Positions 4,546-47,831 of a DNA stretch of 64,000 nt are shown here, one piece after another. The DNA comes from an uncultured Gammaproteobacteria bacterium (lineage in GTDB: Bacteria > Patescibacteriota > Microgenomatia > Levybacterales > UBA12049): positions 447,555 to 511,554 of the forward strand of contig CAZKJM010000001.1 of the NCBI GenBank assembly GCA_964553245.1, written 5' to 3'. Every line of letters begins with the position of its first letter. The first letter of the stretch is position 1. Under the pieces are notes generated by a model. That model was not told the origin of the DNA, did not search any database, and saw only the letters and a list, made by a program, of their open reading frames with translations. Position numbers and translations under genes: made by a program.

Positions 4546-5811
4546 TTAATTACCGAATAAACTTTTTCTTAATTCTTCTCGCTCATCAATAGAAATTACT
4601 TCAATCGGCAAGATTATTTCTCCGGTTGCCTGAAATTCAACAGAATCGAATCTATGTTTTTTTTCCGGATCCTCAAAGTCAATGGTGTATATGCCGTTGG
4701 ACAAAGGAGTTGCTGATGCAAATTGCCCAAGCGGGTTAGTCTTAAAAGCCCGGACTGGGTTTCCTTCCTCGTCTTTTACCTCAACTAAAATATTCGGTAG
4801 AGGATTGTTTCTTGAGTCTTTTATAATACCTGTTAAAACATTTGGAAAATCAGTAGAAATAGGAAGTCCTACGCTTTTGCCCATTTCTTTTGGAATGCTT
4901 CTAACATGTTTAGTTTGTTTTATTTGCGGCTCAGGGATCGCCATGCTTGGGGTGTAAACTTTTTTATTTTGTACCTCAAGTTTTTTTTGAAGTTCCAATA
5001 ATTGATTTTCTAATTGTTGTTTTTGAAGCATAGTTTCATTTAAGATCTTTTCAAGTTCAGTTACTTTTTGGTGCGCTGCCTCATACTCTTTGGATCCTGT
5101 TTTCTCCGAAACTTCTTTTTGCTTTGCTTCCTCAAGTTGTTTTTGAAGAATTACAGCTTCTTTCTGAAGCTCTTCTTCTTTTTCTTCCGGTTCTTCTTTA
5201 GCTTCTTTGGTTGGCATATCAACCGGTTTTGGTGGTTCCACTACAGTTTTTAAATTGTTTTTGCCAAAAATTGCAGCAAATGGATTAGGAAGAGAAAAAG
5301 AGCTGTCATCTTGCAGGGTCTTGGCTTGAATTATTGGGTTAGAAATATTATTCAAGGTTTGCAAAAATGATATTTCTTTTTCGTCCAATTTATTTTTAGG
5401 AGTTTTTGGTAGCGAGGATAAAAATGACTTGAGCTTTTCTTCCGAAATTGCGGGTTGAACAGGAGAGTGAGCCATTATTGCGCCTTGTTTTAATGTCCCA
5501 AACTCGGGAAAATAAAGATCTGCTCCGTTTTTTTGATAAACAAATTGAGTTGGGTTAAAAAGTGCCTTTGAAAAATTGCCAATCATTACATCCAATGGTC
5601 TTCCCTCTATTGGCAAAAAAGCAAAGCTTGCTCCGATTCCGGCTACTACAAGCGCAATCGGAAGTTTTATCAAAAGCAAAAACGGCATAGCAGTAATAAT
5701 CCAACCTAAAATTACGCCTGTTGCAAGATATGCAAACTGTTTGACAGTCATATTGCCGATTAGTTTAAACTGAAAGCCTGTTATATCTTGAGGAATAGGG
5801 TGATTTTCCAT
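4546..5811 (-). CDS. T4SS-associated membrane protein. The N-terminal two-TM module (VirB3/PrgI-like?) is followed by a long coiled coil (EEKEEELQKEAVILQKQLEEAKQ…) and a C-terminal beta-sandwich-like domain.
   Basis: The N-terminus (TGFQFKLIGNMTVKQFAYLATGVILGWIITAMPF…) carries two predicted TM helices and is placed immediately upstream of virB4, as VirB3/PrgI is. Coiled-coil heptads are visible. The C-terminal region (PNILVEVKDEEGNPVRAFKTNPLGQFASATPLSNGIYTIDFE) resembles a carboxypeptidase-regulatory-like/Ig-like fold. Confidence 0.45.
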   Translation of the reverse strand: MENHPIPQDITGFQFKLIGNMTVKQFAYLATGVILGWIITAMPFLLLIKLPIALVVAGIGASFAFLPIEGRPLDVMIGNFSKALFNPTQFVYQKNGADLYFPEFGTLKQGAIMAHSPVQPAISEEKLKSFLSSLPKTPKNKLDEKEISFLQTLNNISNPIIQAKTLQDDSSFSLPNPFAAIFGKNNLKTVVEPPKPVDMPTKEAKEEPEEKEEELQKEAVILQKQLEEAKQKEVSEKTGSKEYEAAHQKVTELEKILNETMLQKQQLENQLLELQKKLEVQNKKVYTPSMAIPEPQIKQTKHVRSIPKEMGKSVGLPISTDFPNVLTGIIKDSRNNPLPNILVEVKDEEGNPVRAFKTNPLGQFASATPLSNGIYTIDFEDPEKKHRFDSVEFQATGEIILPIEVISIDEREELRKSLFGN

Positions 5812-6386: not shown

Positions 6387-6779
6387 TTATAAAGTCGGGA
6401 GTTCTAGATTATTGATGCTTGGGAGACCAAATACACTTAGTATAATGCTTATTATTAAGTAAGAAAGAAATACTACGATTAATCCAATAATAGCAGCTAC
6501 TATATGACTTCTTGCTGCTTCTACTTTTCCTTTATCTCCACCGGATGTGACCCATCTGATACCACCATATATTAAGTATCCAAGAGCAGCAACAATTGCT
6601 AATATAAATGCGGTATTAATTATTACACCGATTATTTTTCCAAAATCTCCAGCTTTAAGCTCGCATAGAGTTTGAGATATTCCTCCACCTTCGCAAAGAT
6701 TAATGGTCTCTGCAAACGCAAATGGAGCCAGTGTTAAATAGGTTGCTGCTGAGGTAATAATTCCTACAGTTTTTTTCAT
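6387..6779 (-). CDS. VirB2/TrbC-like T4SS pilin, paralogue 2
   Basis: Signal-peptide-like N-terminus (MKKTVGIITSAATYLTLAPFAFA), then TM1, loop (TSGGDKGKVEAARSH) and TM2. This is the classic VirB2 topology. Confidence 0.65.
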   Translation of the reverse strand: MKKTVGIITSAATYLTLAPFAFAETINLCEGGGISQTLCELKAGDFGKIIGVIINTAFILAIVAALGYLIYGGIRWVTSGGDKGKVEAARSHIVAAIIGLIVVFLSYLIISIILSVFGLPSINNLELPTL

Positions 6780-6824
6780 TTATAATTTAATGCTAGTATT
6801 AAATTCCTGTCTTGTCAAGTACTT

Positions 6825-7139
6825 TTATATAAAATTATTAATTCCGAATAGTCCTCCGATAATATTTACAATTAAATACGCTAATAAAACAACTACCAAC
6901 CCGGCTACGGCATAAAATAATTTTTTTCTTGCTGCTTGCAATTTTTGTTTATCGCCCTCTGATGTCATCCACTGAAATCCTCCGTAGATTAAAAAGCCTA
7001 AAGCCAGAATAATAGCAACTATATATAATATATTTACTCCGACACCGATAATTTTTTCAAGAGTACCTGCTCCACCGGTTGGAATTCCTTGTGGTCCTGT
7101 AATCTCTTGTCCTGCAATATTTAAAACGATCTCCTTCAT
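6825..7139 (-). CDS. VirB2/TrbC-like T4SS pilin, paralogue 3
   Basis: 104 aa with TM1, loop MTSEGDKQKLQAARKKL and TM2, the same motif as paralogues 1 and 2. Only 3 nt separate it from the upstream gene. Confidence 0.6.
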   Translation of the reverse strand: MKEIVLNIAGQEITGPQGIPTGGAGTLEKIIGVGVNILYIVAIILALGFLIYGGFQWMTSEGDKQKLQAARKKLFYAVAGLVVVLLAYLIVNIIGGLFGINNFI

Positions 7140-14228: not shown

Positions 14229-14315
14229 GGAGGGATCGCATAGAGGCCTAGTGCGTTCGCTTGGAGAGCGGATGTCGTCGTGAGATGACCGGGAGTTCGA
14301 ATCTCCCTCCCTCCG
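14229..14315 (+). tRNA. tRNA-Ser(GGA), type II with long variable arm
   Basis: Acceptor GGAGGGA/TCCCTCC, 3-bp D-stem, anticodon stem TTCGC/GCGGA with loop TTGGAGA, an 18-nt variable arm and T-arm GGGAG-TTCGAAT-CTCCC. The track ORF at 14102-14374 is an artefact over it. Confidence 0.8.
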
Positions 14316-14390
14316 CCTTCACCCGCCGAAGCCAGAATGGCGAAGGCGGGCTTCGATCGGGTTTCAGCGGACACAGTCCGCCATAATGAG

Positions 14391-14819
14391 TTATGAGTTA
14401 TGAGTTATGAGTTGTTTTGCTTCCTCCCAAACCTTTTTATCTGATTTGTAAGTTAATTTTTTTTCCACTTTTTCCACAGAAAGCCATTCAACGCTTTCCA
14501 TTTCTTTATCTTTTAAGCTTAAATCCTCAGTTAAATATTCCATTAAAAAATAATAAACGGTTTTCTTGATTTTTTGTTTTTCAAAAACATACCAATACTC
14601 AACCGGATTTAATGATTTTAGAATTTTGGCGTTAATACCTGTTTCTTCCAAAACTTCTCTTATTGCTGTGTCTTCTTTTTTTTCTTTTTCAATCTTATCT
14701 CCGATTAATCCCTTTGGAAAAACCCAGCCGTGATGTTGTGAATGCTGGCACACTAGAATTAAAAGTTTATTTTTTTCTTTTTTAAAGACTATGCCACCGG
14801 CAGAAAATTCAAATTTCAT
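14391..14819 (-). CDS. NUDIX hydrolase
   Basis: Nudix box GX5EX7REVLEETGI present (…KGLIGDKIEKEKKEDTAIREVLEETGINAKI). Overlaps the upstream GIY-YIG gene by 4 nt (ATGA). Confidence 0.7.
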   Translation of the reverse strand: MKFEFSAGGIVFKKEKNKLLILVCQHSQHHGWVFPKGLIGDKIEKEKKEDTAIREVLEETGINAKILKSLNPVEYWYVFEKQKIKKTVYYFLMEYLTEDLSLKDKEMESVEWLSVEKVEKKLTYKSDKKVWEEAKQLITHNS

Positions 14820-15058
14820 AATGGAAATAAATGTTTTTTTAAGAAAGCCCTTCCAGAACCAGATTTAAGGTATTTCTCAAAATTAAAAGCGGTATATTTA
14901 TCTATGAACGCAAAATAAGAGATCAGTCTTATTGGACGTAGTAATTTAGTTGCAGGTACATGTCCTTTTTTATGCCTTTCTATTCTTTCTTCCAAATTGC
15001 TTGTACAACCCGTATATGGTTTGCCGTTTTTACATTTTAAAAAATATACAAAAAACAT
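14816..15058 (-). CDS. Small stand-alone GIY-YIG domain protein (~80 aa)
   Basis: The GIY-YIG-like motif is MFFVYFLKCKNGKPYTGCTSNLEERIERHKKG. The track ORF (14816-15259) is over-extended across two tRNA genes. The real start is probably the Met at 15058, with AAGGAG 9 nt upstream. Confidence 0.6.
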   Translation of the reverse strand: MFFVYFLKCKNGKPYTGCTSNLEERIERHKKGHVPATKLLRPIRLISYFAFIDKYTAFNFEKYLKSGSGRAFLKKHLFPL

Positions 15059-15122
15059 ACTAATTTCTCCTTCGCGAACTACTAAGCGGATGTTATCCGC
15101 CGTAGCTCGCTTCGGCGAGCGA

Positions 15123-15212
15123 TGGCGGAGGAGAGAGGATTCGAACCTCTGTGAGCCGTAAAGCCCGCTCGGTTTTCGAGACCGGCCAAATAAACCACTC
15201 TTGCACTCCTCC
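15123..15212 (-). tRNA. tRNA-Ser(CGA), type II
   Basis: Reverse complement gives acceptor GGAGGAG/CTCCTCC, 3-bp D-stem CAA/TTG, anticodon loop CTCGAAA (one C·A mismatch at the stem top), a long variable arm, T-arm AGAGG-TTCGAAT-CCTCT and an encoded CCA. Confidence 0.65.
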
Positions 15213-15217
15213 ATAAG

Positions 15218-15290
15218 CGCTCTTGGGGAGAATCGAACTCCCAGCCTAAGCGTCCGCAACGCTTCGCTCTATCCGTTGAGCTACAAGAGC
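15218..15290 (-). tRNA. tRNA-Arg(GCG)
   Basis: Reverse complement GCTCTTG-TA-GCTC-AACGGATA-GAGC-G-AAGCG-TTGCGGA-CGCTT-AGGCT-GGGAG-TTCGATT-CTCCC-CAAGAGC-G. Every stem pairs perfectly and the anticodon is GCG. Confidence 0.75.
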
Positions 15291-15297
15291 CCGTTAC

Positions 15298-15346
15298 CGC
15301 TTCGCTCTATCCGTTGACCCCGATTAAATCGGGGTTGAACTACAGG
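15298..15346 (-). repeat. Truncated 5' copy of tRNA-Arg (5' acceptor strand, D-arm and 5' anticodon stem) interrupted by a 17-nt hairpin, upstream of the intact tRNA-Arg
   Basis: The 19-nt stretch gcttcgctctatccgttga occurs at 15261-15279 and again at 15299-15317. The second copy is followed by ccccgattaaatcgggg flanked by a ttga duplication, then actacagg, which is the D-stem region. It ends exactly at the anticodon stem/loop boundary. Confidence 0.55.
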
Positions 15347-15361
15347 CACAGATTAGCAAGT

Positions 15362-15375
15362 AGTATATAGCAAAT
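15362..15375 (-). promoter_or_regulatory. Putative extended -10 promoter (TGCTATATACT on the - strand) for the tRNA-Arg / tRNA-Ser(CGA) transcript
   Basis: The 14-mer agtatatagcaaat also occurs at 16266-16279, upstream of the other minus-strand tRNA pair. It resembles the TGCTATACT element upstream of three other genes. Confidence 0.4.
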
Positions 15376-15424
15376 AATAAATAGCTACACTGTGATTTTA
15401 CTTTAAAGTTGAATTTGAAGCAAA

Positions 15425-15997
15425 TTAATGGGAATTTTCCAAGGGAAAATTTTTAGAAAGCCAGTCGCCTGATTTTTCCATAAAAGTCGGCTTTATATAT
15501 TCCCTAAACGGGAGATAAGGCAAAAGTACTCTTTTTATGTGTTCTCTGTCAATGTTTCTTAATGTTAAGGTTAATTCCCCGGGGATAAATGCTTTTGTTC
15601 GTATGTGCAATACGTCTACGCCGTTTATCTTTTTAAAATAAAAATCATATAATTCTTGCCATAGGAAAAAATGATCCTCAACTTTTATTCCCTCAGTGCT
15701 TATTCTATAATGGAAATCCTGGGGGGGAACACTTGATAGCGCAAAGCTTACAAAGACCAAAGACAAAATTACCAGCATTAGTAAATATTGAGAAAAAAGA
15801 AAAAGAATAATCTCTACAAAAAACATAATCAAAAGCGCAGTTAAATAATATTGTTTTGTTCTTTTTTTAAATGGTCTGCCGGGAGAACTCCATGATAAAA
15901 GAGTTTTTACTTCCGTGGGGGGATAATTAAAGCTTGAATAAGGATGTTGTTCTTTAATTTCATTTGATTTAGGATTTTCCTTTATTTGTTTTTCCAT
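15425..15997 (-). CDS. Hypothetical membrane protein (190 aa, two TM helices)
   Basis: ORF of good length between tRNA genes with central hydrophobic helices (LTALLIMFFVEIILFLFSQYLLMLVILSLVFVSFAL). Confidence 0.45.
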   Translation of the reverse strand: MEKQIKENPKSNEIKEQHPYSSFNYPPTEVKTLLSWSSPGRPFKKRTKQYYLTALLIMFFVEIILFLFSQYLLMLVILSLVFVSFALSSVPPQDFHYRISTEGIKVEDHFFLWQELYDFYFKKINGVDVLHIRTKAFIPGELTLTLRNIDREHIKRVLLPYLPFREYIKPTFMEKSGDWLSKNFPLENSH

Positions 15998-16062
15998 AGA
16001 GCAGTATATTTTTAATCTACCCTAATCAGAAGTATTAGTCAATAAATATTGATTTTCAATTT

Positions 16063-16152
16063 TGGCGGAGAGGGTGGGATTCGAACCCACGTTCACCAAT
16101 TGGCGAAAGCGGTTTTCAAGACCGCCGCACTAGGCCTCTATGCGACCTCTCC
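16063..16152 (-). tRNA. tRNA-Ser(TGA), type II
   Basis: Reverse complement gives GGAGAGG…, D-stem GCA/TGC, anticodon stem GCGGT/ACCGC with loop CTTGAAA, a long variable arm, T-arm and an encoded CCA. Confidence 0.8.
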
Positions 16153-16157
16153 TAGGG

Positions 16158-16247
16158 CGGAGGAGGTGAGATTCGAACTCACGCGAGCTTATTCAGCTCA
16201 GGGGGTTAGCAACCCCCCGCAATGGACCGTGCTATGCGACTCCTCCT
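16158..16247 (-). tRNA. tRNA-Ser(GCT), type II
   Basis: Reverse complement gives GGAGGAG-TC-GCA…, anticodon stem GGGGG/CCCCC with loop TTGCTAA, a long variable arm and T-arm GTGAG-TTCGAAT-CTCAC. The track ORF 16049-16267 is an artefact over the two tRNAs. Confidence 0.8.
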
Positions 16248-18038: not shown

Positions 18039-18046
18039 GTGAAGAG

Positions 18047-18412
18047 TGGAGATGTCGAGCTATGAACTCGAGTCCAAGAAATTCGTTAAAAAACATCTAC
18101 AAGCTTATTCGATTTTTTAAATTTCGCTTTATTCTTATCCAATCGAAAGGAAAAAATAAAGTTAAGATTAAATAAATTCTATAAGGACCTAATCAACTTC
18201 CTTATTATTTCCCAAACTGTGTTTATGCCTAGATAATCCCGTTTAGGAAAAGATTAAATAGACAGTCTTTTAGTTATATGCGTATAAAGGCATATATGCC
18301 AATTGACTTCTAGAATTACTTCTAGCATTTATTTTTTGACTAGTTTAAAGACATTTAGTCGTTGTCTGCTTGCAGTTTTTAAAGTGCTTTCCTGTCGATG
18401 CAATGCATCCCC
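18047..18412 (-). ncRNA. ssrA: tmRNA (ssrA), ~366 nt
   Basis: The - strand 5' end is GGGGATGCATTGCATCGACAGG, matching the conserved GGGGNUG…UCGACNGG. The 3' end is T-arm TCGAG-TTCATAG-CTCGA followed directly by CATCTCC-A. That acceptor pairs with the 5' GGGGATG, including the G3·U wobble. It lies immediately downstream of smpB. The tag-peptide frame was not resolved by eye. Confidence 0.7.
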
Positions 18413-38306: not shown

Positions 38307-40793
38307 ATGAAACTAGACGGAATTAGAGAAAAAGTATTTTTAGATAGATATGCCTTAAAAGACAAAAAAGGTAATCCTATCGAAAAGACCCCCGATGAAA
38401 TGTGGAGAAGGGTTGCGAAGGGTGTTTCACAAGCAGAAAAAAAATCAGAGCGTACAAAATGGGAGAAAAAATTCTATGAAGCAATGCAGGATTTTAAATT
38501 TGTTCCGGGTGGAAGAATTCTGGCAGGTGCAGGTACAGGCTATCAAGTAACATTCTATAATTGCTTTGTCCTCCCTAGCCCTAAAGATTCAAGAGACGGG
38601 ATTTTAGAAAATCTAAAACATATGACCGAGATTATGGCAAGAGGAGGAGGAGCGGGAATAAATCTTTCTTCTTTAAGACCAAGAGGAGCAAGGGTAAAAA
38701 AGGTAAATGGTTTTTCCTCCGGTCCGATTAATTGGGCAGAGCTTTATTCCATAACCACAAAAGACATAATTCAACAAGGAGGTTCAAGAAGAGGAGCATT
38801 AATGTTAATGCTTTGGGATTGGCATCCGGATATTGAAGAATTTATTACGGTAAAACAGGATCTTACTAAAATTAACGGCGCTAATTTATCCGTTTGTGTT
38901 TCCGATAAATTTATGGAGGCAGTTAAAAAAGATGAAGATTGGGATTTAGTTTTTCCGGATATTGACGACAAAGATTACGATGAAAAATGGGACGGAAACT
39001 TGGAAACTTGGAAATCTCTAAAGAAAAAAGTAAAAGTTTTTAAAACAATAAAAGCAAGACATCTTTGGGATTTAATTTGTGAAGCTGCATGGAGATCTGC
39101 AGAGCCGGGAATCGTTTTTATGGAAAGATATAATAAATGGTATAACAACTGGTATTGGAATAAAGTTAATTGTACAAATCCTTGCGGCGAAGAAGGATTG
39201 CCCGCTTGGGGAGTTTGTAATTTAAGCTCTTTAAATCTCTCAGCCTTTGTAAAAGGATATTCTGTAGATAAAGCAGGAGAGATGGACTATAAATCATTAG
39301 CGGAATACGCAAAAATTGGCGTTAGACTGCAGGACGATGTTATAGATATGGATTCCTACGCTTTTCCTCAAATCAGACAAGTTCAGGTAAATGGAGAAAG
39401 AAGAATTGGGCTTGGCACAATGGGGCTTGGAGACGCTTTAATAAAAATGCATCTTCGCTATGGAACAGAAGAATCCTTAAAAGTCATCGAGAAAATTTTT
39501 AAAACAATAAGGGACGCTGCTTATGAGGTGTCATCTGAGCTTGCAAAAGAAAAAGGTGTATTTCCTAAGTTTAACAGTCAAAAATATACAAAGGGCTATT
39601 TTATTAAAAAGTTACCAAAAGAATTAAGAACAAAAATTAAGAAACAGGGTATTAGGAATTCTCTTTTGCTTCAAGCGGCGCCAACTGGATCAACCAGTCT
39701 TTTATCGGGAGTATCATCGGGAATAGAGCCGATTTATGAATTTGAATTTATTAGAAAAGACAGGCTTGGAGAGCACAAAATTTATCACCATCTGTATGAA
39801 GAATGGAAAAATGCCCATCCGGATTTATCGGAAAGCGAAAAGCCTGAATACTTTGTTTCTGCAAACGATCTTACTCCCGCAGATCATGTAAAAGTTCAAG
39901 GAACAATCCAAAAATATGTAGATGCTTCCATTTCCAAAACAGTTAACGCTCCAAGGACACATACAGTTAATGATGTAAAAAATCTTTATATGATGGCTTA
40001 TGAAGAAGGTTGTAAGGGAATTGCTTATATGAGGGAAGGATCAAGAGAAGGAGTTTTGGTTAGAAAAGAGGATAAAAAAGAAGAATTAGCTAATTTACAA
40101 GCCGGCGGAGAAAGAACTGCGCCAAAAAATACAATTACACCAAGACCGTATATGGTAGAAGGAGTGACTTATAAAACAGAAACCCCTGTTGGGCAAACGT
40201 ATATAACCATAAATCATGATGAGTGTAAGGAGCCGTTTGAGATATTTATAACCGTTGGAAAATCCGGTTCAGACGTTGCTGCAATGGCGGATGGATTAGG
40301 AAGAATGATTTCTTTATTTCTAAGACTTAACGGACATCTTTCTTCAAGAGAAAGAGTAAAGCAGGTTATAGCGCAATTAATCGGAATCGGTGGTGCAAAA
40401 AGCGTTGGCTTTGGAGATAAAAGAGTAAGATCATTGCCGGATGCGGTTGCCAAAGTTTTAGCAAGGCACTTTTCTTTTAGAGTTAACGGTGTAGTTGAAG
40501 ATAAGCCTCGTACTTTGCATGCAAACGGAGCTTCTAATCAAAATGGTCATAAAAATGGATTAATGAATGGGCACACTTTACCAGTAAATAATATTGCTTC
40601 TTCGGAAAAACAGGATGATCAGCCAATTGTAGTTATGAAACAACTTACTTTGGAAACGCAAGAGGGTAATCTTTCATCCTCGGAAGGTGTCTCCACAGGG
40701 CTTTTTGATATTTGTCCGGATTGTGGAAGTGGAAGCTTAGCTTACGAAGAAGGCTGTAGAAAATGCTACAGTTGTGGATATTCAGAGTGTTAA
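38307..40793 (+). CDS. nrdJ: Class II (adenosylcobalamin-dependent) ribonucleotide reductase NrdJ
   Basis: Active-site CTNPCGEEGL and a C-terminal zinc ribbon (CPDCGSGSLAYEEGCRKCYSCGYSEC). A single long chain lies immediately after nrdR. Confidence 0.85.
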   Translation: MKLDGIREKVFLDRYALKDKKGNPIEKTPDEMWRRVAKGVSQAEKKSERTKWEKKFYEAMQDFKFVPGGRILAGAGTGYQVTFYNCFVLPSPKDSRDGILENLKHMTEIMARGGGAGINLSSLRPRGARVKKVNGFSSGPINWAELYSITTKDIIQQGGSRRGALMLMLWDWHPDIEEFITVKQDLTKINGANLSVCVSDKFMEAVKKDEDWDLVFPDIDDKDYDEKWDGNLETWKSLKKKVKVFKTIKARHLWDLICEAAWRSAEPGIVFMERYNKWYNNWYWNKVNCTNPCGEEGLPAWGVCNLSSLNLSAFVKGYSVDKAGEMDYKSLAEYAKIGVRLQDDVIDMDSYAFPQIRQVQVNGERRIGLGTMGLGDALIKMHLRYGTEESLKVIEKIFKTIRDAAYEVSSELAKEKGVFPKFNSQKYTKGYFIKKLPKELRTKIKKQGIRNSLLLQAAPTGSTSLLSGVSSGIEPIYEFEFIRKDRLGEHKIYHHLYEEWKNAHPDLSESEKPEYFVSANDLTPADHVKVQGTIQKYVDASISKTVNAPRTHTVNDVKNLYMMAYEEGCKGIAYMREGSREGVLVRKEDKKEELANLQAGGERTAPKNTITPRPYMVEGVTYKTETPVGQTYITINHDECKEPFEIFITVGKSGSDVAAMADGLGRMISLFLRLNGHLSSRERVKQVIAQLIGIGGAKSVGFGDKRVRSLPDAVAKVLARHFSFRVNGVVEDKPRTLHANGASNQNGHKNGLMNGHTLPVNNIASSEKQDDQPIVVMKQLTLETQEGNLSSSEGVSTGLFDICPDCGSGSLAYEEGCRKCYSCGYSEC

Positions 40794-40975
40794 CTAGTGC
40801 ATAGGTAATTGCCGTTAAATTCGGCAGCAGTGCCGCTACTGTAAATTCCGCGAAGCCTCTTGGGCAAAGTGGAATAAAGCCAGAAAACTATGTACGTTCG
40901 CCAAAAGGCGGATGTTTCCCGAGCAGGAATTTTTTTGTAAAAAACCTCCTCGGGATTACCTAGGGAGGATTTTTT
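40794..40975 (+). promoter_or_regulatory. Candidate cobalamin riboswitch / structured leader upstream of the PduO-type adenosyltransferase
   Basis: The 182-nt region is unusually GC-rich for this genome. It contains GCCGCTACTGTAA (compare the conserved gCcCccgCaACtGtaa element), AGCCAG (B12-box-like) and a GGAGG RBS within a possible sequestering hairpin. Confidence 0.35.
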
Positions 40976-41533
40976 ATGGTTAAACAGATTCACCGCGAGT
41001 TTAAAATATATACAAAAAGGGGGGACAAGGGTTTTACCTATCTTTTTAATGGCAAAAAAATTAAAAAAGACAATAATAGAGTGCAAGCTTATGGGAATAT
41101 TGATGAATTAAATTCAATAGTAGGAATTTTAATTGCCTTTTTAAGAGATAAGCAACTAAAAAAAGAGTTGATCTGTGTTCAAAAAGATTTGTTTTTAGTA
41201 GGTGGGTATTTAGCAAAATCAATTGGTAGAGAAATAGAGATACTTAATAAAAGAACAAAAGAGATAGAACTGCTAATCGATAAATTATCGGTAAAACTTC
41301 CCAAAATTACTTCTTTTATATTACCAGGGGGTACAATAGAGGCTTCGTTTATGCATTTTGCAAGAACTGTTTGTAGAAGATCGGAAAGAAGTGTCGTTTT
41401 ATTGTCCAAAAAAGAAACCGTAGAAAAAACAGTGATTGTTTATTTGAATAGGCTTTCAGACGCCCTTTTTATAATGGCTAGATTTATAAATTTTAAAGAA
41501 GGGAAAAAAGAGGAGGTCTGGAAAACAAAATGA
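40976..41533 (+). CDS. PduO-type ATP:cob(I)alamin adenosyltransferase
   Basis: N-terminal IYTKRGDKGFTYLFNGKKIKKDNNRVQAYGNIDELNSIVG closely matches the PduO/MMAB signature (YTKTGDKG…EAYG..DELNS). Confidence 0.85.
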   Translation: MVKQIHREFKIYTKRGDKGFTYLFNGKKIKKDNNRVQAYGNIDELNSIVGILIAFLRDKQLKKELICVQKDLFLVGGYLAKSIGREIEILNKRTKEIELLIDKLSVKLPKITSFILPGGTIEASFMHFARTVCRRSERSVVLLSKKETVEKTVIVYLNRLSDALFIMARFINFKEGKKEEVWKTK

Positions 41534-42600
41534 AAGAAAAAATTGCCGGATCAATTGCGTTTAGATTAGAATATCAGCCACAAGTATTGGAAAAGGAAAT
41601 AAGAGAAGACGTAATTTCTTATCTTTGGGAATACCGTTTTAGTGGTCAAAAATATGATTATTCCCTTTCTTTTACAGACGGAAAAATAACAGATATCCAT
41701 AGGGGGGAATCGATGGTGGTTAAGGGAGAAAGAGCAGTTGAGGACAGGAAAATCCGAGGATTATCCACAACAAGAGAAGAAGCGGAATTGGTTGGCATTA
41801 AAAGATTAGAAGACCAACTTAGTTTATTAAAAAACGAGGGAACAATCATTTGGGCAAGTCCTCCTGGATCAACGGAAGATGGATATGGTGATTATGGATT
41901 TTTATATGTCGGTAAAGTTAGATCGGATGATTCTAGTAATAAAGAAATAACAATGACTGCTATAAGAGTGGAGAGTCCGACTGTAAAAGGTTTTAATGAA
42001 GTTTTTTCCGATTTATTAAAGGATAAAGTAGAGGCAAAAAATCCAGAAGATTTTATTTCTGCGCCGCTTGTTTTAGAAAGACAAATGGATATTGGTCATA
42101 TTGAAGAAATTTTGCATAAGGTTTTTTTATACGAAGAAAAGACAAAAGAAAAAGAATTATTTAAAAGAGTTTTAAAAAGACTGAATCCATTAATTACTGA
42201 TTTTACAAATTTTTATGGAAAGGCAAGTCCTGAGGAAAGACAAAAAGCGTTATATGCATTAGAGAATTATGCACTTATTTTAAAGGCTGAAGAAAATGTT
42301 TTGGATAAAGAAAATGTAATTTATGTAAGTCAAAAACAAGAGCAAAGCCTGGTAGCAATTATGCCTGTCTTGGGTTACGAACCGCCGAAGGTTCTTGGCA
42401 GTTGTGGAAGTACCAAAACAGAGAGCAATAATATCTTTGGACCAAAAACTATTTTAAATTCACTTTTAGAAGATGATAATTACGGATCAAGAGCGTTTAA
42501 GTGTCCAAGGTGCGGACAAGTTAATATTAGACCAAAAAATGAGCTTGTAAGTCATTGTCAGTATTGTGGAAGCAATGAGGTAAGTTGTTCTAATTCATAG
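41530..42600 (+). CDS. Hypothetical protein with a C-terminal zinc-ribbon (CPRCGQ…CQYCGS)
   Basis: 356-aa ORF with a 4-nt overlap to the upstream gene. No known domain apart from the terminal Cys4 pair. Confidence 0.45.
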   Translation: MKEKIAGSIAFRLEYQPQVLEKEIREDVISYLWEYRFSGQKYDYSLSFTDGKITDIHRGESMVVKGERAVEDRKIRGLSTTREEAELVGIKRLEDQLSLLKNEGTIIWASPPGSTEDGYGDYGFLYVGKVRSDDSSNKEITMTAIRVESPTVKGFNEVFSDLLKDKVEAKNPEDFISAPLVLERQMDIGHIEEILHKVFLYEEKTKEKELFKRVLKRLNPLITDFTNFYGKASPEERQKALYALENYALILKAEENVLDKENVIYVSQKQEQSLVAIMPVLGYEPPKVLGSCGSTKTESNNIFGPKTILNSLLEDDNYGSRAFKCPRCGQVNIRPKNELVSHCQYCGSNEVSCSNS

Positions 42601-43057: not shown

Positions 43058-45427
43058 ATGATAGAAGCTCTCACCATGGAAAATTTAGTTCCATCATTAA
43101 TATTATTTGGAGCTTATGCTTTAGCAATAACGGTTTTAGTATTTTTCATAGCGTTTGTAGCCTACTCGTTGTTTATTTTATATAAAAACAGAAATAGGGA
43201 AAAAGATGCGCTTAATTCAACGCTTCTTCAGGTTTCACTAACCAGAGATAATGAGGTTAAAATTGATGCTGCAGAACAGCTTTTTGCATCTTTAGCATCG
43301 GTCAGAAAAGGAGGAAAATTAAGTTTTTTAAAACCTCAACCCCATTTTTCTTTTGAGATTGTCGGAATACCCGGGGACATCAGTTTTTATATTTATACCC
43401 CGAATAAACTAAAGGATTTAATCGAGAAGCAAATAAATGGTGCTTATCCAGAAGCGGAAATAAAAGTTGTTGATGAAAAAACGCAAAAAGAGGGATATGT
43501 AATCGGTAATGAATATAATATTTTCTCCAAAGAAGGAAAAGTTGCCTTTACTTCCCTTAAGCTTAAAACTTCAAATTATTATCCAATAAAAGTTTTTAAA
43601 GATTTACCTGTTGATCCTTTGTCTTCTATTACATCAGTCTTGGCAAAAATGACCGAAGGAGAAGGAGCTGCAATTCAAGTTTTATTTAGTCCGGTAGATG
43701 GAAAATGGAAAAAAATGGGAAGGGGATATATTTCCCGAACTAAAAAAGGAGAGGCAAATCCGGAAACGGCTAAATATTCGGCAGACTCTAAAGAGCTGGA
43801 AGCAGTAGAAAACAAAATATCAAAAACGGGTTTTGATACGGTTATAAGAATTGTAGTTTCCTCAAGCACAAAAGAAGCTGCAAGTGCTCATCTTAGCAAT
43901 ATTATAACCAGCTTTGGCCAGTTTAACGGAATAAACTCTTTTACTAAAAATAAACATAGGCTTAAAGGTTTGTTTATGAATGATTTTATTTACCGTTTTA
44001 TGCCAATGTATGGTCAGACTTCGGTGTTGTCGAATGAAGAACTGGCAACGGTTTTCCATTTTCCGAACAAATCGGTAACAACGCCTCATATTCATTGGCT
44101 AAATTCCAAAAGGGCACCAGCTCCTGCACAAATACCTGATAACGGTCTTTTTTTGGGAAGAAGTACTTATAGAGGCTTGTCAAAGCCGGTTTACATGCAA
44201 AGAGACGATAGAAGACGCCATATGTACGTTATTGGAAAAACCGGTGTTGGAAAATCCGAGTTTTTAAAAGATATGATTTTGCAGGATATTAGAAATGGAG
44301 AAGGGGTTTGTTTTATAGATCCTCACGATACAATTGATAAATTACTTCCTCTGATTCCGCCGGAGCGTGCAGAAGACGTAATCCTTTTTGAGCCTTCGGA
44401 TACAGATAGACCAATGGGGCTAAATATGTTAGAAGCACAAACAGAAGACCAGAAACATTATGTTGTTTCGTCGATAATAGGCCTTATGTATAAACTTTAT
44501 GATCCAAATAAAACCGGAATTATCGGACCAAGGTTTGAGCACGCAATAAGAAATGCAATGCTAACAGTAATGTCAGAACCGGGAAATACTTTTGTAGAAG
44601 TAGTAAGGGCTTTAACAGATTCCAGTTTTGTAGAAGAATTATTGCCAAAAGTACAGGATCCAATGGTAAGAAGATATTGGACAGATCAAATTGCTCAAAC
44701 ATCGGATTTTCATAAATCAGAAGTTTTAGATTATATTGTTTCTAAGTTCAGTAGATTCGTAAGCAATAAAATGATGAGAAACATTATTGGTCAGTCTGAA
44801 TCTGCTTTTAATTTTAGAAAAGTAATGGATGAGGGTAAAATTCTTTTAATTTCTTTATCAAAAGGAAGAATTGGGGAAGAGAATTCAAGCTTTTTAGGAC
44901 TCGTTTTAGTGCCAAAGATTTTAGTTGCCGCAATGAGCAGGCAGGATATTCCGGAAGAAAAAAGAAGGGACTTTTATTTATACGTTGATGAGTTTCAAAA
45001 TTTTGCAACGCCTGATTTTGCCCAAATACTTTCAGAGGCAAGAAAATACAGGCTTAATTTAACGGTTGCTAACCAGTTTATCGGTCAAATGGACGAGGAG
45101 GTAAAAAACGCAATTTTTGGAAACGTTGGTTCTCTTGTTTCATTTAGAGTTGGTGTAACAGATGCTAATTATCTTCAACATGAATTCCAACCTGTATTTA
45201 CAGAAGCAGATCTTATTAATGTAGACAGGTTTAATGCTTATATAAAAACGGTTGTCGGTGGAGAACCTGTTTTGCCTTTTTCAATTGATCTAACTCGTGA
45301 TATGACAAAAGAAAAACAGACCGAAAATCCAAGAGTAGCAGAATTAATTCGTGAGCTTTCAAGATTAAAATATGGTCACGATGTTACCACCGTAGAGCAG
45401 CAAATTGCCCAAAGGGCAAGATTGTAA
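43058..45427 (+). CDS. Type IV coupling protein-like ATPase (VirD4/TraG/TraD family)
   Basis: N-terminal TM anchor, Walker A (YVIGKTGVGKSEF), Walker B (FYLYVDEFQNF) and the family-typical segment ARKYRLNLTVANQFIGQMDEE… Length is 789 aa. Confidence 0.6.
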   Translation: MIEALTMENLVPSLILFGAYALAITVLVFFIAFVAYSLFILYKNRNREKDALNSTLLQVSLTRDNEVKIDAAEQLFASLASVRKGGKLSFLKPQPHFSFEIVGIPGDISFYIYTPNKLKDLIEKQINGAYPEAEIKVVDEKTQKEGYVIGNEYNIFSKEGKVAFTSLKLKTSNYYPIKVFKDLPVDPLSSITSVLAKMTEGEGAAIQVLFSPVDGKWKKMGRGYISRTKKGEANPETAKYSADSKELEAVENKISKTGFDTVIRIVVSSSTKEAASAHLSNIITSFGQFNGINSFTKNKHRLKGLFMNDFIYRFMPMYGQTSVLSNEELATVFHFPNKSVTTPHIHWLNSKRAPAPAQIPDNGLFLGRSTYRGLSKPVYMQRDDRRRHMYVIGKTGVGKSEFLKDMILQDIRNGEGVCFIDPHDTIDKLLPLIPPERAEDVILFEPSDTDRPMGLNMLEAQTEDQKHYVVSSIIGLMYKLYDPNKTGIIGPRFEHAIRNAMLTVMSEPGNTFVEVVRALTDSSFVEELLPKVQDPMVRRYWTDQIAQTSDFHKSEVLDYIVSKFSRFVSNKMMRNIIGQSESAFNFRKVMDEGKILLISLSKGRIGEENSSFLGLVLVPKILVAAMSRQDIPEEKRRDFYLYVDEFQNFATPDFAQILSEARKYRLNLTVANQFIGQMDEEVKNAIFGNVGSLVSFRVGVTDANYLQHEFQPVFTEADLINVDRFNAYIKTVVGGEPVLPFSIDLTRDMTKEKQTENPRVAELIRELSRLKYGHDVTTVEQQIAQRARL

Positions 45428-45488: not shown

Positions 45489-45560
45489 GCGTCTGTAGCT
45501 CAGTGGCAGAGCGCTACTCTTATAAAGTAGATGTCCTTGGTTCGAACCCAAGCAGACGCA
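45489..45560 (+). tRNA. tRNA-Ile(TAT)
   Basis: GCGTCTG-TA-GCTC-AGTGGCA-GAGC-G-CTACT-CTTATAA-AGTAG-ATGTC-CTTGG-TTCGAAC-CCAAG-CAGACGC-A. Every stem pairs perfectly and the anticodon is UAU. Confidence 0.75.
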
Positions 45561-47757: not shown

Positions 47758-47831
47758 GCCAGGGTAGCTCAGTCGGTTAGAGCACAGCATTCATAACGCT
47801 GAGGTCGTGGGTTCGATCCCCACCTCTGGTA
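47758..47831 (+). tRNA. tRNA with CAT anticodon (elongator Met or Ile2; not initiator-like)
   Basis: GCCAGGG-TA-GCTC-AGTCGGTTA-GAGC-A-CAGCA-TTCATAA-CGCTG-AGGTC-GTGGG-TTCGATC-CCCAC-CTCTGGT-A. The acceptor has two G·U pairs. It lacks the three G:C anticodon-stem pairs of initiator tRNA. Confidence 0.65.

Follow-up and report, generated by a model that had tools for sequence, protein, structure and literature searches.

A probable class-II cobalamin riboswitch between nrdJ and pduO in a genome likely to belong to Patescibacteria

Is the spacer between a B12-dependent ribonucleotide reductase gene and a gene for cobalamin adenosylation a cobalamin riboswitch and, if so, of which type and acting in which direction? 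This question is raised by a 64,000-nucleotide stretch of contig CAZKJM010000001.1 (positions 447,555 to 511,554; the whole stretch is called the window below, and coordinates are window positions unless a related locus is named), which comes from a probable Patescibacteria (candidate phyla radiation, CPR) genome. This placement draws on a neighbouring DUF5667 gene, on a longest contig of 562 kb, on the names under which homologues are recorded, and on related contigs having come from 0.1-µm filtrates. A first-pass annotation had proposed a possible cobalamin riboswitch in the 182-nt spacer 40794-40975, between nrdJ and a PduO-type gene, and Pfam confirmed both flanking genes. The upstream gene (38307-40793, stop codon TAA at 40791-40793) encodes an 828-aa class II adenosylcobalamin (AdoCbl)-dependent ribonucleotide reductase (RNR) with Ribonuc_red_lgC/lgN and TSCPD domains (PF02867, PF00317 and PF12637), and the downstream one (40976-41533, ATG at 40976) a 185-aa PduO-type ATP:cob(I)alamin adenosyltransferase (PF01923 Cob_adeno_trans, E=5e-53). 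An NrdR gene is located just 5' of nrdJ. The genes and RNA elements of this locus described below are on the + strand. Our analysis indicates, with a probability of about 0.85, that the aptamer of a class-II cobalamin riboswitch (RF01689, AdoCbl-II or "AdoCbl-variant") lies at 40797-40895, resembles subclass Cbl-IIb and belongs to a repressing kissing-loop switch, with pduO as the first regulated gene.

The evidence that carries this assignment comes from related loci. The window PduO protein has just a handful of close relatives, which are about 64% identical to it, and exact look-ups of the protein returned no record. The contigs of these relatives share the order CBS-methyltransferase, DUF5667, NrdR, NrdJ, spacer, PduO, an unannotated gene of ~350-390 aa, a gene of ~125 aa and a TraG/VirD4-like ATPase, and their spacers are collinear with that of the window and can be aligned to it block by block. 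Invariant blocks among the aligned spacers are AAUUG.CGU..AAU.CGGC..CAGUGCCGCUACUGU.A, AAG.CAGAAAACU and UUUCCCGAGCAGGA.U7. Five more loci (L091-L095), some of them from 0.1-µm groundwater filtrates, were obtained with a DNA-pattern scan of metagenome contigs, and a PduO-based scan of genome contigs gave, among the matches listed, only loci of other phyla with at most 48% identity, including L029. The aptamer is followed by pduO in the window and in L001, L005, L006, L009, L091, L093 and L094, and is thereby associated with cobalamin-related genes. The Rfam gathering scores (GA) are 36.5 bits for RF01689 and 31.5 bits for RF00174. Six orthologous nrdJ-pduO spacers all exceed the former (L094, 58.3; L093, 56.7; L091, 50.8; L006, 50.8; L001, 45.5; and L009, 37.6 bits). 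In addition, loci that share 68-74% identity in pduO DNA and 80-89% in nrdJ DNA are 87.5-92.5% identical in the 40-nt aptamer core. Poor conservation of the spacer in relatives had been named as a point that would count against the riboswitch; the spacer is better conserved than the coding DNA around it. Independent support for a cobalamin signal from regulon membership comes from L092, where the same aptamer type lies 5' of a DUF4430 / ECF-S-component-like (DUF6580) / PduO operon. This operon is itself a candidate cobalamin uptake module.

A covariance model, R1, was then derived from nine copies, with the window copy excluded and the optional insertions in L4 and P6 excised by hand. Searched with R1, the 64 kb yield a single match, 40793-40897 (65.4 bits, E~7e-19), in which the P6 hairpin described below is treated as a 35-nt insertion. 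Covariation was then counted on 15 copies from all loci, aligned to the model. (A MAFFT alignment of full aptamers had misaligned the 3' half owing to the optional L4 and P6 insertions, and the model-based alignment, A5, was used for the counts instead.) Standard pairs are formed in 87.8% of the pair cells, versus 30-48% when the partners are slid; 18 of the 20 base pairs change on both sides, and none of 500 shuffles reached the observed covariation values. The closing helix shows compensatory change, being GUGCAUAG/CUAUGUAC in the window but GUGUAUAG/CUAUACAC in L006, and wholly different in sequence in L091-L095 (for instance UCGUAAGUGG/CCACUUAUGA in L094). Together, the RF01689 scores of the orthologues, the R1 match, the conserved spacer and the covarying helices support the riboswitch that the first-pass annotation had suggested.

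The copies form the P3-P6 four-way junction of the family, with its conserved loops. In the window the aptamer is closed by a single continuous 8-bp helix, P1/P3, in which GUGCAUAG (40797-40804) pairs with CUAUGUAC (40888-40895), as found in the minimum free energy (MFE) fold, the R1 alignment and the covariation; it has neither a P2 arm nor a J1/3 internal loop, and all ten modelled pairs of P1/P3 change on both sides across the copies. Junction J3/4, GUAAU (40805-40809), aligns in the orthologues to the GAAAu junction of RF01689 and is kept as G(U/C)AAU across copies. The Rfam and R1 alignments place next P4 (UGCCG/CGGCA) with its 7-nt T-loop-type L4 UUAAAUU (40810-40826), four of whose five pairs show both-sided changes, and P5 (AG/CU, 40829-40837), in which A-U is exchanged for U-A. 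The loop of P5, L5 (40831-40835), is UGCCG in every CPR copy and is the predicted kissing-loop partner. P6 (40839-40883) consists of CUG (40839-40841) paired with CAG (40881-40883), and its loop L6, UAA / AAAGC, is split by a 31-nt hairpin extension (40845-40875) found in the window and in L009. The binding-core junction J6/3, AAAA (40884-40887), is invariant in the nrdJ-pduO copies.

All motifs quoted in the first-pass annotation are present, namely GCCGCTACTGTAA (40832-40844), AGCCAG (40878-40883), CCTCCTCGGG (40945-40954), CTAGGGAGG (40960-40968) and GGAGG (40964-40968), and except for the short ones they are unique in the window. The reported likeness to core motifs is real: GCCGCUACUGUAA spans L5, the 3' strand of P5 and the 5' strand of P6, and AGCCAG is the core of the B12 box and includes the 3' strand of P6. 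The description of the spacer as GC-rich for this genome was correct as well, the enrichment being moderate (45.1% versus 34.5% for the whole window; so high a GC content is reached in just 2.3% of all 182-nt windows of the 64 kb). The whole spacer folds with -66 kcal/mol (z = -3.9 versus dinucleotide shuffles), and the hairpin said to enclose the ribosome-binding site is predicted by folding and would correspond to the expression platform.

As laid out in PMC7367189, class II is distinguished from class I by the periphery at P2 and P6. The window copy has no P2 and only a short hairpin on P6, and it lacks the P2 loop-stem-loop and the long P6 extension (P7-P11) of class I, RF00174. It shares with RF00174 a GCCGCUACUGUAA-like motif, the AGCCAG B12 box and the point at which P6 is extended, and because of these shared features RF00174 is its best Rfam match, with the P3 strands of the model gapped and a score below the GA of that model. 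In a first threading onto RF00174 we had read the missing P6 hairpin of the relatives as a loss. This was overturned, since a short P6 (3 bp with a 7-nt loop) is the norm in RF01689; the short form of L001, L006 and the L09x loci is therefore canonical and the window hairpin is an insertion. The hairpin is entirely absent in L001, L005 and L006, and also in L091a, L093 and L094, and L009 keeps it with a pair-preserving change from G-U to A-U. The element is of the small class-II type and not of the large classical RF00174 type, which refines the original proposal, and the Rfam model of the AdoCbl variant is RF01689, not RF01482 as cited there.

Like RF01689 members such as the Enterococcus faecalis eut riboswitch, the window element combines the P3-P6 four-way junction with a T-loop L4, a short P5 carrying a kissing L5, and a minimal P6; some class-II members, the eut riboswitch among them, are without J1/3 (PMC6158498). 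Unlike the usual RF01689 sequence its L5 is UGCCG instead of UCCCG, with L13 changed to match, and unlike the known examples it occupies an nrdJ-pduO spacer in a genome that is probably from Patescibacteria. According to the legend of Fig. 1 of PMC7367189, Cbl-IIb has a paired segment replacing J1/3 and a short P6 hairpin, and is reported to be AdoCbl-specific; Cbl-IIa, according to the same article, has a J1/3 T-loop that is bulged, only a plain loop on P6, and a preference for hydroxo- or methylcobalamin. The window copy, without P2, and L009 display both Cbl-IIb features. L001, L005, L006, L091a, L093 and L094 display only the first and have a plain P6 loop, so that the group straddles the two peripheral definitions. 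The same core is seen in env8HyCbl, a Cbl-IIa member (PDB 4FRN/4FRG), in which the kissing loop of L5 and L13 likewise contains unpaired nucleotide(s). In env8, unlike in the window, a J1/3 T-loop docks on J6/3, and hydroxocobalamin (HyCbl) or methylcobalamin (MeCbl) is preferred.

The region 3' of the aptamer has the layout expected of a kissing-loop switch. An optional linker hairpin in J1/13 (GUUCGCC-AAAA-GGCGGAU, 40896-40913), kept in structure with a different sequence in L009, L001, L006 and L005 and absent in L093 and L094, is followed by P13 (UUCC/GGAA, 40916-40929) with loop L13, CGAGCA (40920-40925). L13 is invariant in every CPR copy, and the stem of P13 covaries, being CUUC/GAAG in L096 and L092b and UCU/AGA in L097. 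L5 and L13 are complementary through G35-C20, C34-G21, C33-G23, G32-C24 and U31-A25 with A22 bulged (last two digits of positions 408xx and 409xx, respectively). Judged by sequence, L13 is presented by a stem-loop and its kissing with L5 would leave one nucleotide unpaired; at least one such nucleotide is required for the L5-L13 interaction (PMC5028336). In L029, L5 is UACCG and L13 CGAGUcA, a compensatory change of G:C to A:U. We had also considered the invariant UUUCCCGAGCAGGA box as a promoter, a weak nrdJ terminator or a leader-ORF signal; these options were rejected because the stem covaries, the loop complements L5 and the box complements the 5' arm of the terminator described next.

P13/L13 is complementary to the 5' arm of a terminator-like hairpin at 40939-40975 (AAAAAACCUCCUCGGG-AUUA-CCUAGGGAGGA, then U6; -14.6 kcal/mol in isolation) that contains the pduO Shine-Dalgarno (SD) sequence GGAGG (40964-40968) and abuts the AUG at 40976. 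The alternative duplex, an antiterminator and anti-sequestrator (40918-40954), pairs CCCGAG(c)AGG (40918-40927) with CCU(c)CUCGGG (40945-40954) at -17.4 kcal/mol. The two complete folds of the window are nearly equal in energy, -28.6 kcal/mol for the antiterminator and -30.0 kcal/mol for the terminator, a gap of 1.4. When co-transcriptional folding is considered, the antiterminator is the MFE of every nascent window transcript until the U-tract is out. In L009, L094, L091a, L091b and L092b it is also the free MFE, and blocking L13 flips the fold to the terminator. An equivalent hairpin with a U-run is present in L006, L005, L093, L094, L091, L092, L096 and L098. In L091 and L093 this hairpin and U-run lie ~60 nt 5' of the AUG, and there the action would therefore be on transcription only. 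Complementarity of P13 to the 5' side of a terminator, instead of overlap with it, is the signature of a repressing switch (PMC10327014). On this analogy the element is most likely an OFF switch that would act on both termination and access to the SD.

Several variants of this platform were observed. In L091 (4761-4860) and L092 (4897-5010) the P13/L13 box is interrupted between CCCGAGC and AGGA by one or two extra hairpins; in these copies, L091a and L092a, the kissing nucleotides lie 5' of the insertion, and the insertion coincides with the mismatch in the antiterminator duplex, which suits a three-way junction. L001 (3957-4003) has no final terminator/SD hairpin; here the P13/L13 box, GAGCAGGA, and a run of U8 directly precede the pduO AUG, an arrangement resembling the translational env8 type and likely caused by a deletion between two GGAUUUUUUU(A)UG repeats. 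In a gammaproteobacterial metagenome-assembled genome, L029 (3549-3623) has a class-II riboswitch (RF01689, 37.5 bits) directly 3' of pduO with the same P13/antiterminator/terminator layout as the window; the platform design is therefore not CPR-specific.

Comparison with published systems clarifies what is shared. In env8, L13 itself carries the ribosome-binding site (PMC5028336), unlike in the window, where P13/L13 would serve as antiterminator for a separate terminator/SD hairpin. In the Priestia megaterium metE corrinoid riboswitch, which is of class I, transcriptional and repressing (PMC10327014), the regulatory logic is that proposed here, with a ligand-stabilized kissing loop that stabilizes P13. 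The metE aptamer differs in being a large class I aptamer (with P2 and a long P6 extension) with UCCCG in L5; the window in turn pairs nearly the whole of P13/L13 with its terminator and not just the 3' side of P13, and its terminator also hides the SD.

In the mechanism that we propose, the aptamer RNA would form the last part of an nrdR-nrdJ transcript. The aptamer begins 4 nt past the stop codon of nrdJ, and a search of the spacer for promoter-like sites gave none, so that transcription from the nrdR-nrdJ promoter is most likely and the element would be an operon-internal attenuator. With cobalamin bound, AdoCbl being the best guess, L5 would kiss L13 and stabilize the P13 hairpin; the 40939-40975 hairpin could then form, its U6 tail may terminate transcription, and its 3' arm would bury the pduO SD beside the AUG. 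Under cobalamin scarcity, P13/L13 would instead pair with the 5' arm of the terminator hairpin, RNA polymerase would read through, and the freed SD would permit synthesis of PduO and of a translationally coupled 356-aa protein. Transcripts would end after nrdJ when cobalamin is ample and continue into pduO and later genes upon shortage, and the net effect would be feedback repression of genes for cobalamin adenosylation and handling just behind an AdoCbl-consuming enzyme.

A number of observations weigh against this reading. In the whole window there is no cobalamin-clan match at the gathering thresholds of Rfam 15. A permissive scan of 40700-41050 gave 24.4 bits (E=2e-4) with RF00174 as the best Rfam score of the window copy, which is thus below the GA of all three Rfam cobalamin models and does not reach the covariance-model score of class II in clan CL00101. 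The RF00174 alignment is awkward, with a poorly paired P2 forced into the coding end of nrdJ and both model P3 strands deleted, and taken alone the Rfam result for this copy would leave the riboswitch call undecided. At two core positions the window copy is atypical: J6/3 is AAAA versus AGcG in the RF01689 consensus, and L4 has a U where nearly all other copies have a G. Owing to these substitutions and the sub-threshold score, ligand binding by the window copy is put forward as a prediction. The alignment used for the covariation counts had been fitted to the model and includes several closely related sequences, and the case for the kissing loop consists of invariant sequences plus the one compensatory example, L029. 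As to the platform, the terminator is the MFE of the window sequence with or without L13 blocked, so that switching must be kinetic, and a simple terminator scan did not call the hairpin at 40939-40975. Finally, assignment to Cbl-IIb and selectivity for AdoCbl are uncertain given that close relatives lack the P6 hairpin, and the ligand form, which we infer from the subclass, shares this uncertainty.

These points bear on three other explanations. The spacer might be an ordinary intergenic region, in which an nrdJ terminator and a structured pduO ribosome-binding site coincide with a chance likeness to the B12 box and no ligand is sensed; the silence of Rfam at gathering thresholds fits this, and the 3' hairpin with its U-run could simply terminate nrdJ. 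We consider this very improbable, as such a region would match neither R1 with 65.4 bits nor, in its orthologues, RF01689 above the GA, and would show neither 18 covarying pairs out of 20 nor a core better conserved than the flanking genes, nor would the element recur 5' of other B12-related genes. The orthologue scores, the R1 match and the covariation effectively refute it. The shortfall in Rfam coincides with the 31-nt P6 insertion, and L009, which carries the same insertion, scores 37.6 bits. At gathering thresholds, the refutation proposed in the first-pass annotation, absence of a significant covariance-model hit, would wrongly reject the riboswitch. The related possibility of a decaying or relic riboswitch, in which the P6 insertion, the G-to-U change in L4 and J6/3 AAAA abolished binding and left a constitutive platform, would account for the lowest R1 score among the nrdJ-pduO copies (65.4 versus 79-93 bits in the insertion-free copies), for the scores below every Rfam GA and for a terminator MFE regardless of L13. 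It receives the least credence of all. L009 has the same P6 hairpin with its pair-preserving change and exceeds the GA; L5, L13 and all core junctions are intact and have the same sequences as in the high-scoring copies; and J6/3 AAAA is common to every high-scoring nrdJ-pduO copy. The U in L4 occupies position 2 of the T-loop, and the T-loops of tRNAs tolerate U at this position, so that it is compatible with such a fold.

A genuine class-II aptamer with another ligand or logic, responding to hydroxo- or methylcobalamin or broadly to corrinoids, or acting mainly on translation, is also unlikely, if less so than the two preceding explanations. The plain P6 loop of the closest relatives recalls Cbl-IIa, and class-II selectivity is presented in PMC6158498 and PMC7367189 as a continuum set by small peripheral changes; against this, none of the nrdJ-pduO copies has the J1/3 T-loop by which the Cbl-IIa pocket is buttressed, and end-product feedback by AdoCbl would be the simplest logic for an adenosyltransferase gene. 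Mainly translational control would agree with an SD inside the hairpin, with an AUG directly after the U-run and with L001, whose P13/L13 box is spaced from the start codon as an SD would be and as in env8, but not with L091 and L093, where the distance of the hairpin from the AUG leaves it a terminator role only. A repressing, Cbl-IIb-like class-II switch is the preferred reading.

The gene following pduO encodes the 356-aa protein mentioned above (41530-42600), which has a C-terminal zinc ribbon and belongs to an uncharacterized family. Its start overlaps the pduO stop (ATGA), and for this reason it is probably in the same regulated operon as pduO. The protein had no Pfam or NCBIfam match; its family comprises 26 clusters, one labelled "hypothetical protein, Patescibacteria group bacterium" and the others unnamed. 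Homologues follow NrdR-NrdJ-PduO in four further contexts that were retrieved, and in all three with DNA available (L096, L097 and L098) a cobalamin riboswitch is located between pduO and the homologue, with R1 scores of 50, 46 and 41 bits, respectively, and RF00174 scores above the GA in L097 (48.5 bits) and L098 (50.1 bits). L091 and L092 have second riboswitch copies past pduO (5499-5588 and 6769-6861; R1 55-56 bits, Rfam 30.3-30.4 bits, just below the GA), making two riboswitches in series, and the second copies precede an unannotated protein of 446 aa or 432 aa. Comparison of these proteins with the 356-aa family by hhalign gave 92% probability (E=5e-7, 246 columns), and 89% over the C-terminal GxCG...CPxC...CxxCG region, so these are probable distant relatives of the family. 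Because of its linkage to riboswitches, a role of the family in cobalamin handling is a reasonable hypothesis. We also note that the tail of NrdJ (within 40700-40793; CxxC...CxxC..C, CPDCG...CRKCYSCGYSEC) and that of the 356-aa protein (within 42500-42600; CPRCG...HCQYCGSNEVSC) are similar.

Some further features were recorded. The first copy in L092 (4766-4896) has a hairpin of ~31 nt inside the normally highly conserved T-loop L4 and its own P6 extension; it scores 53.4 bits with R1 and is not reported by Rfam at all. In L097 (476-4147) the NrdJ orthologue, of 1223 aa, contains an intein with a LAGLIDADG endonuclease domain according to precomputed Pfam hits. A few genes past pduO the window encodes a 789-aa TraG/VirD4/TrwB-like (DUF8128-type) ATPase (43058-45427, + strand) that is conserved in most related loci. 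Rfam also identified a tmRNA (97.4 bits; 18044-18412, - strand) and seven tRNA genes (14229-16246, 45489-45560 and 47758-47831), ordinary features with no connection to the riboswitch.

The class and its mechanism were already known; what the sequence adds would be one more member, in a probable CPR genome, working as published ones do, and the riboswitch itself is a modest gain. In the library searched, no paper was found that connects cobalamin riboswitches with Patescibacteria or CPR, which is absence of evidence only. The window copy provides a concrete false negative of the Rfam 15 gathering thresholds. True members are pushed below the cut-off by an optional hairpin, which can be in P6 or, as in L092, in L4, and for this reason B12 control will be under-counted when the regulons of small-genome CPR bacteria are surveyed. 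In addition, an uncharacterized protein family is now flagged as riboswitch-linked to cobalamin and gains a testable functional hypothesis. For the organism, the results suggest that an ultra-small, probably B12-auxotrophic bacterium may still keep feedback control of cobalamin adenosylation behind its AdoCbl-dependent RNR.
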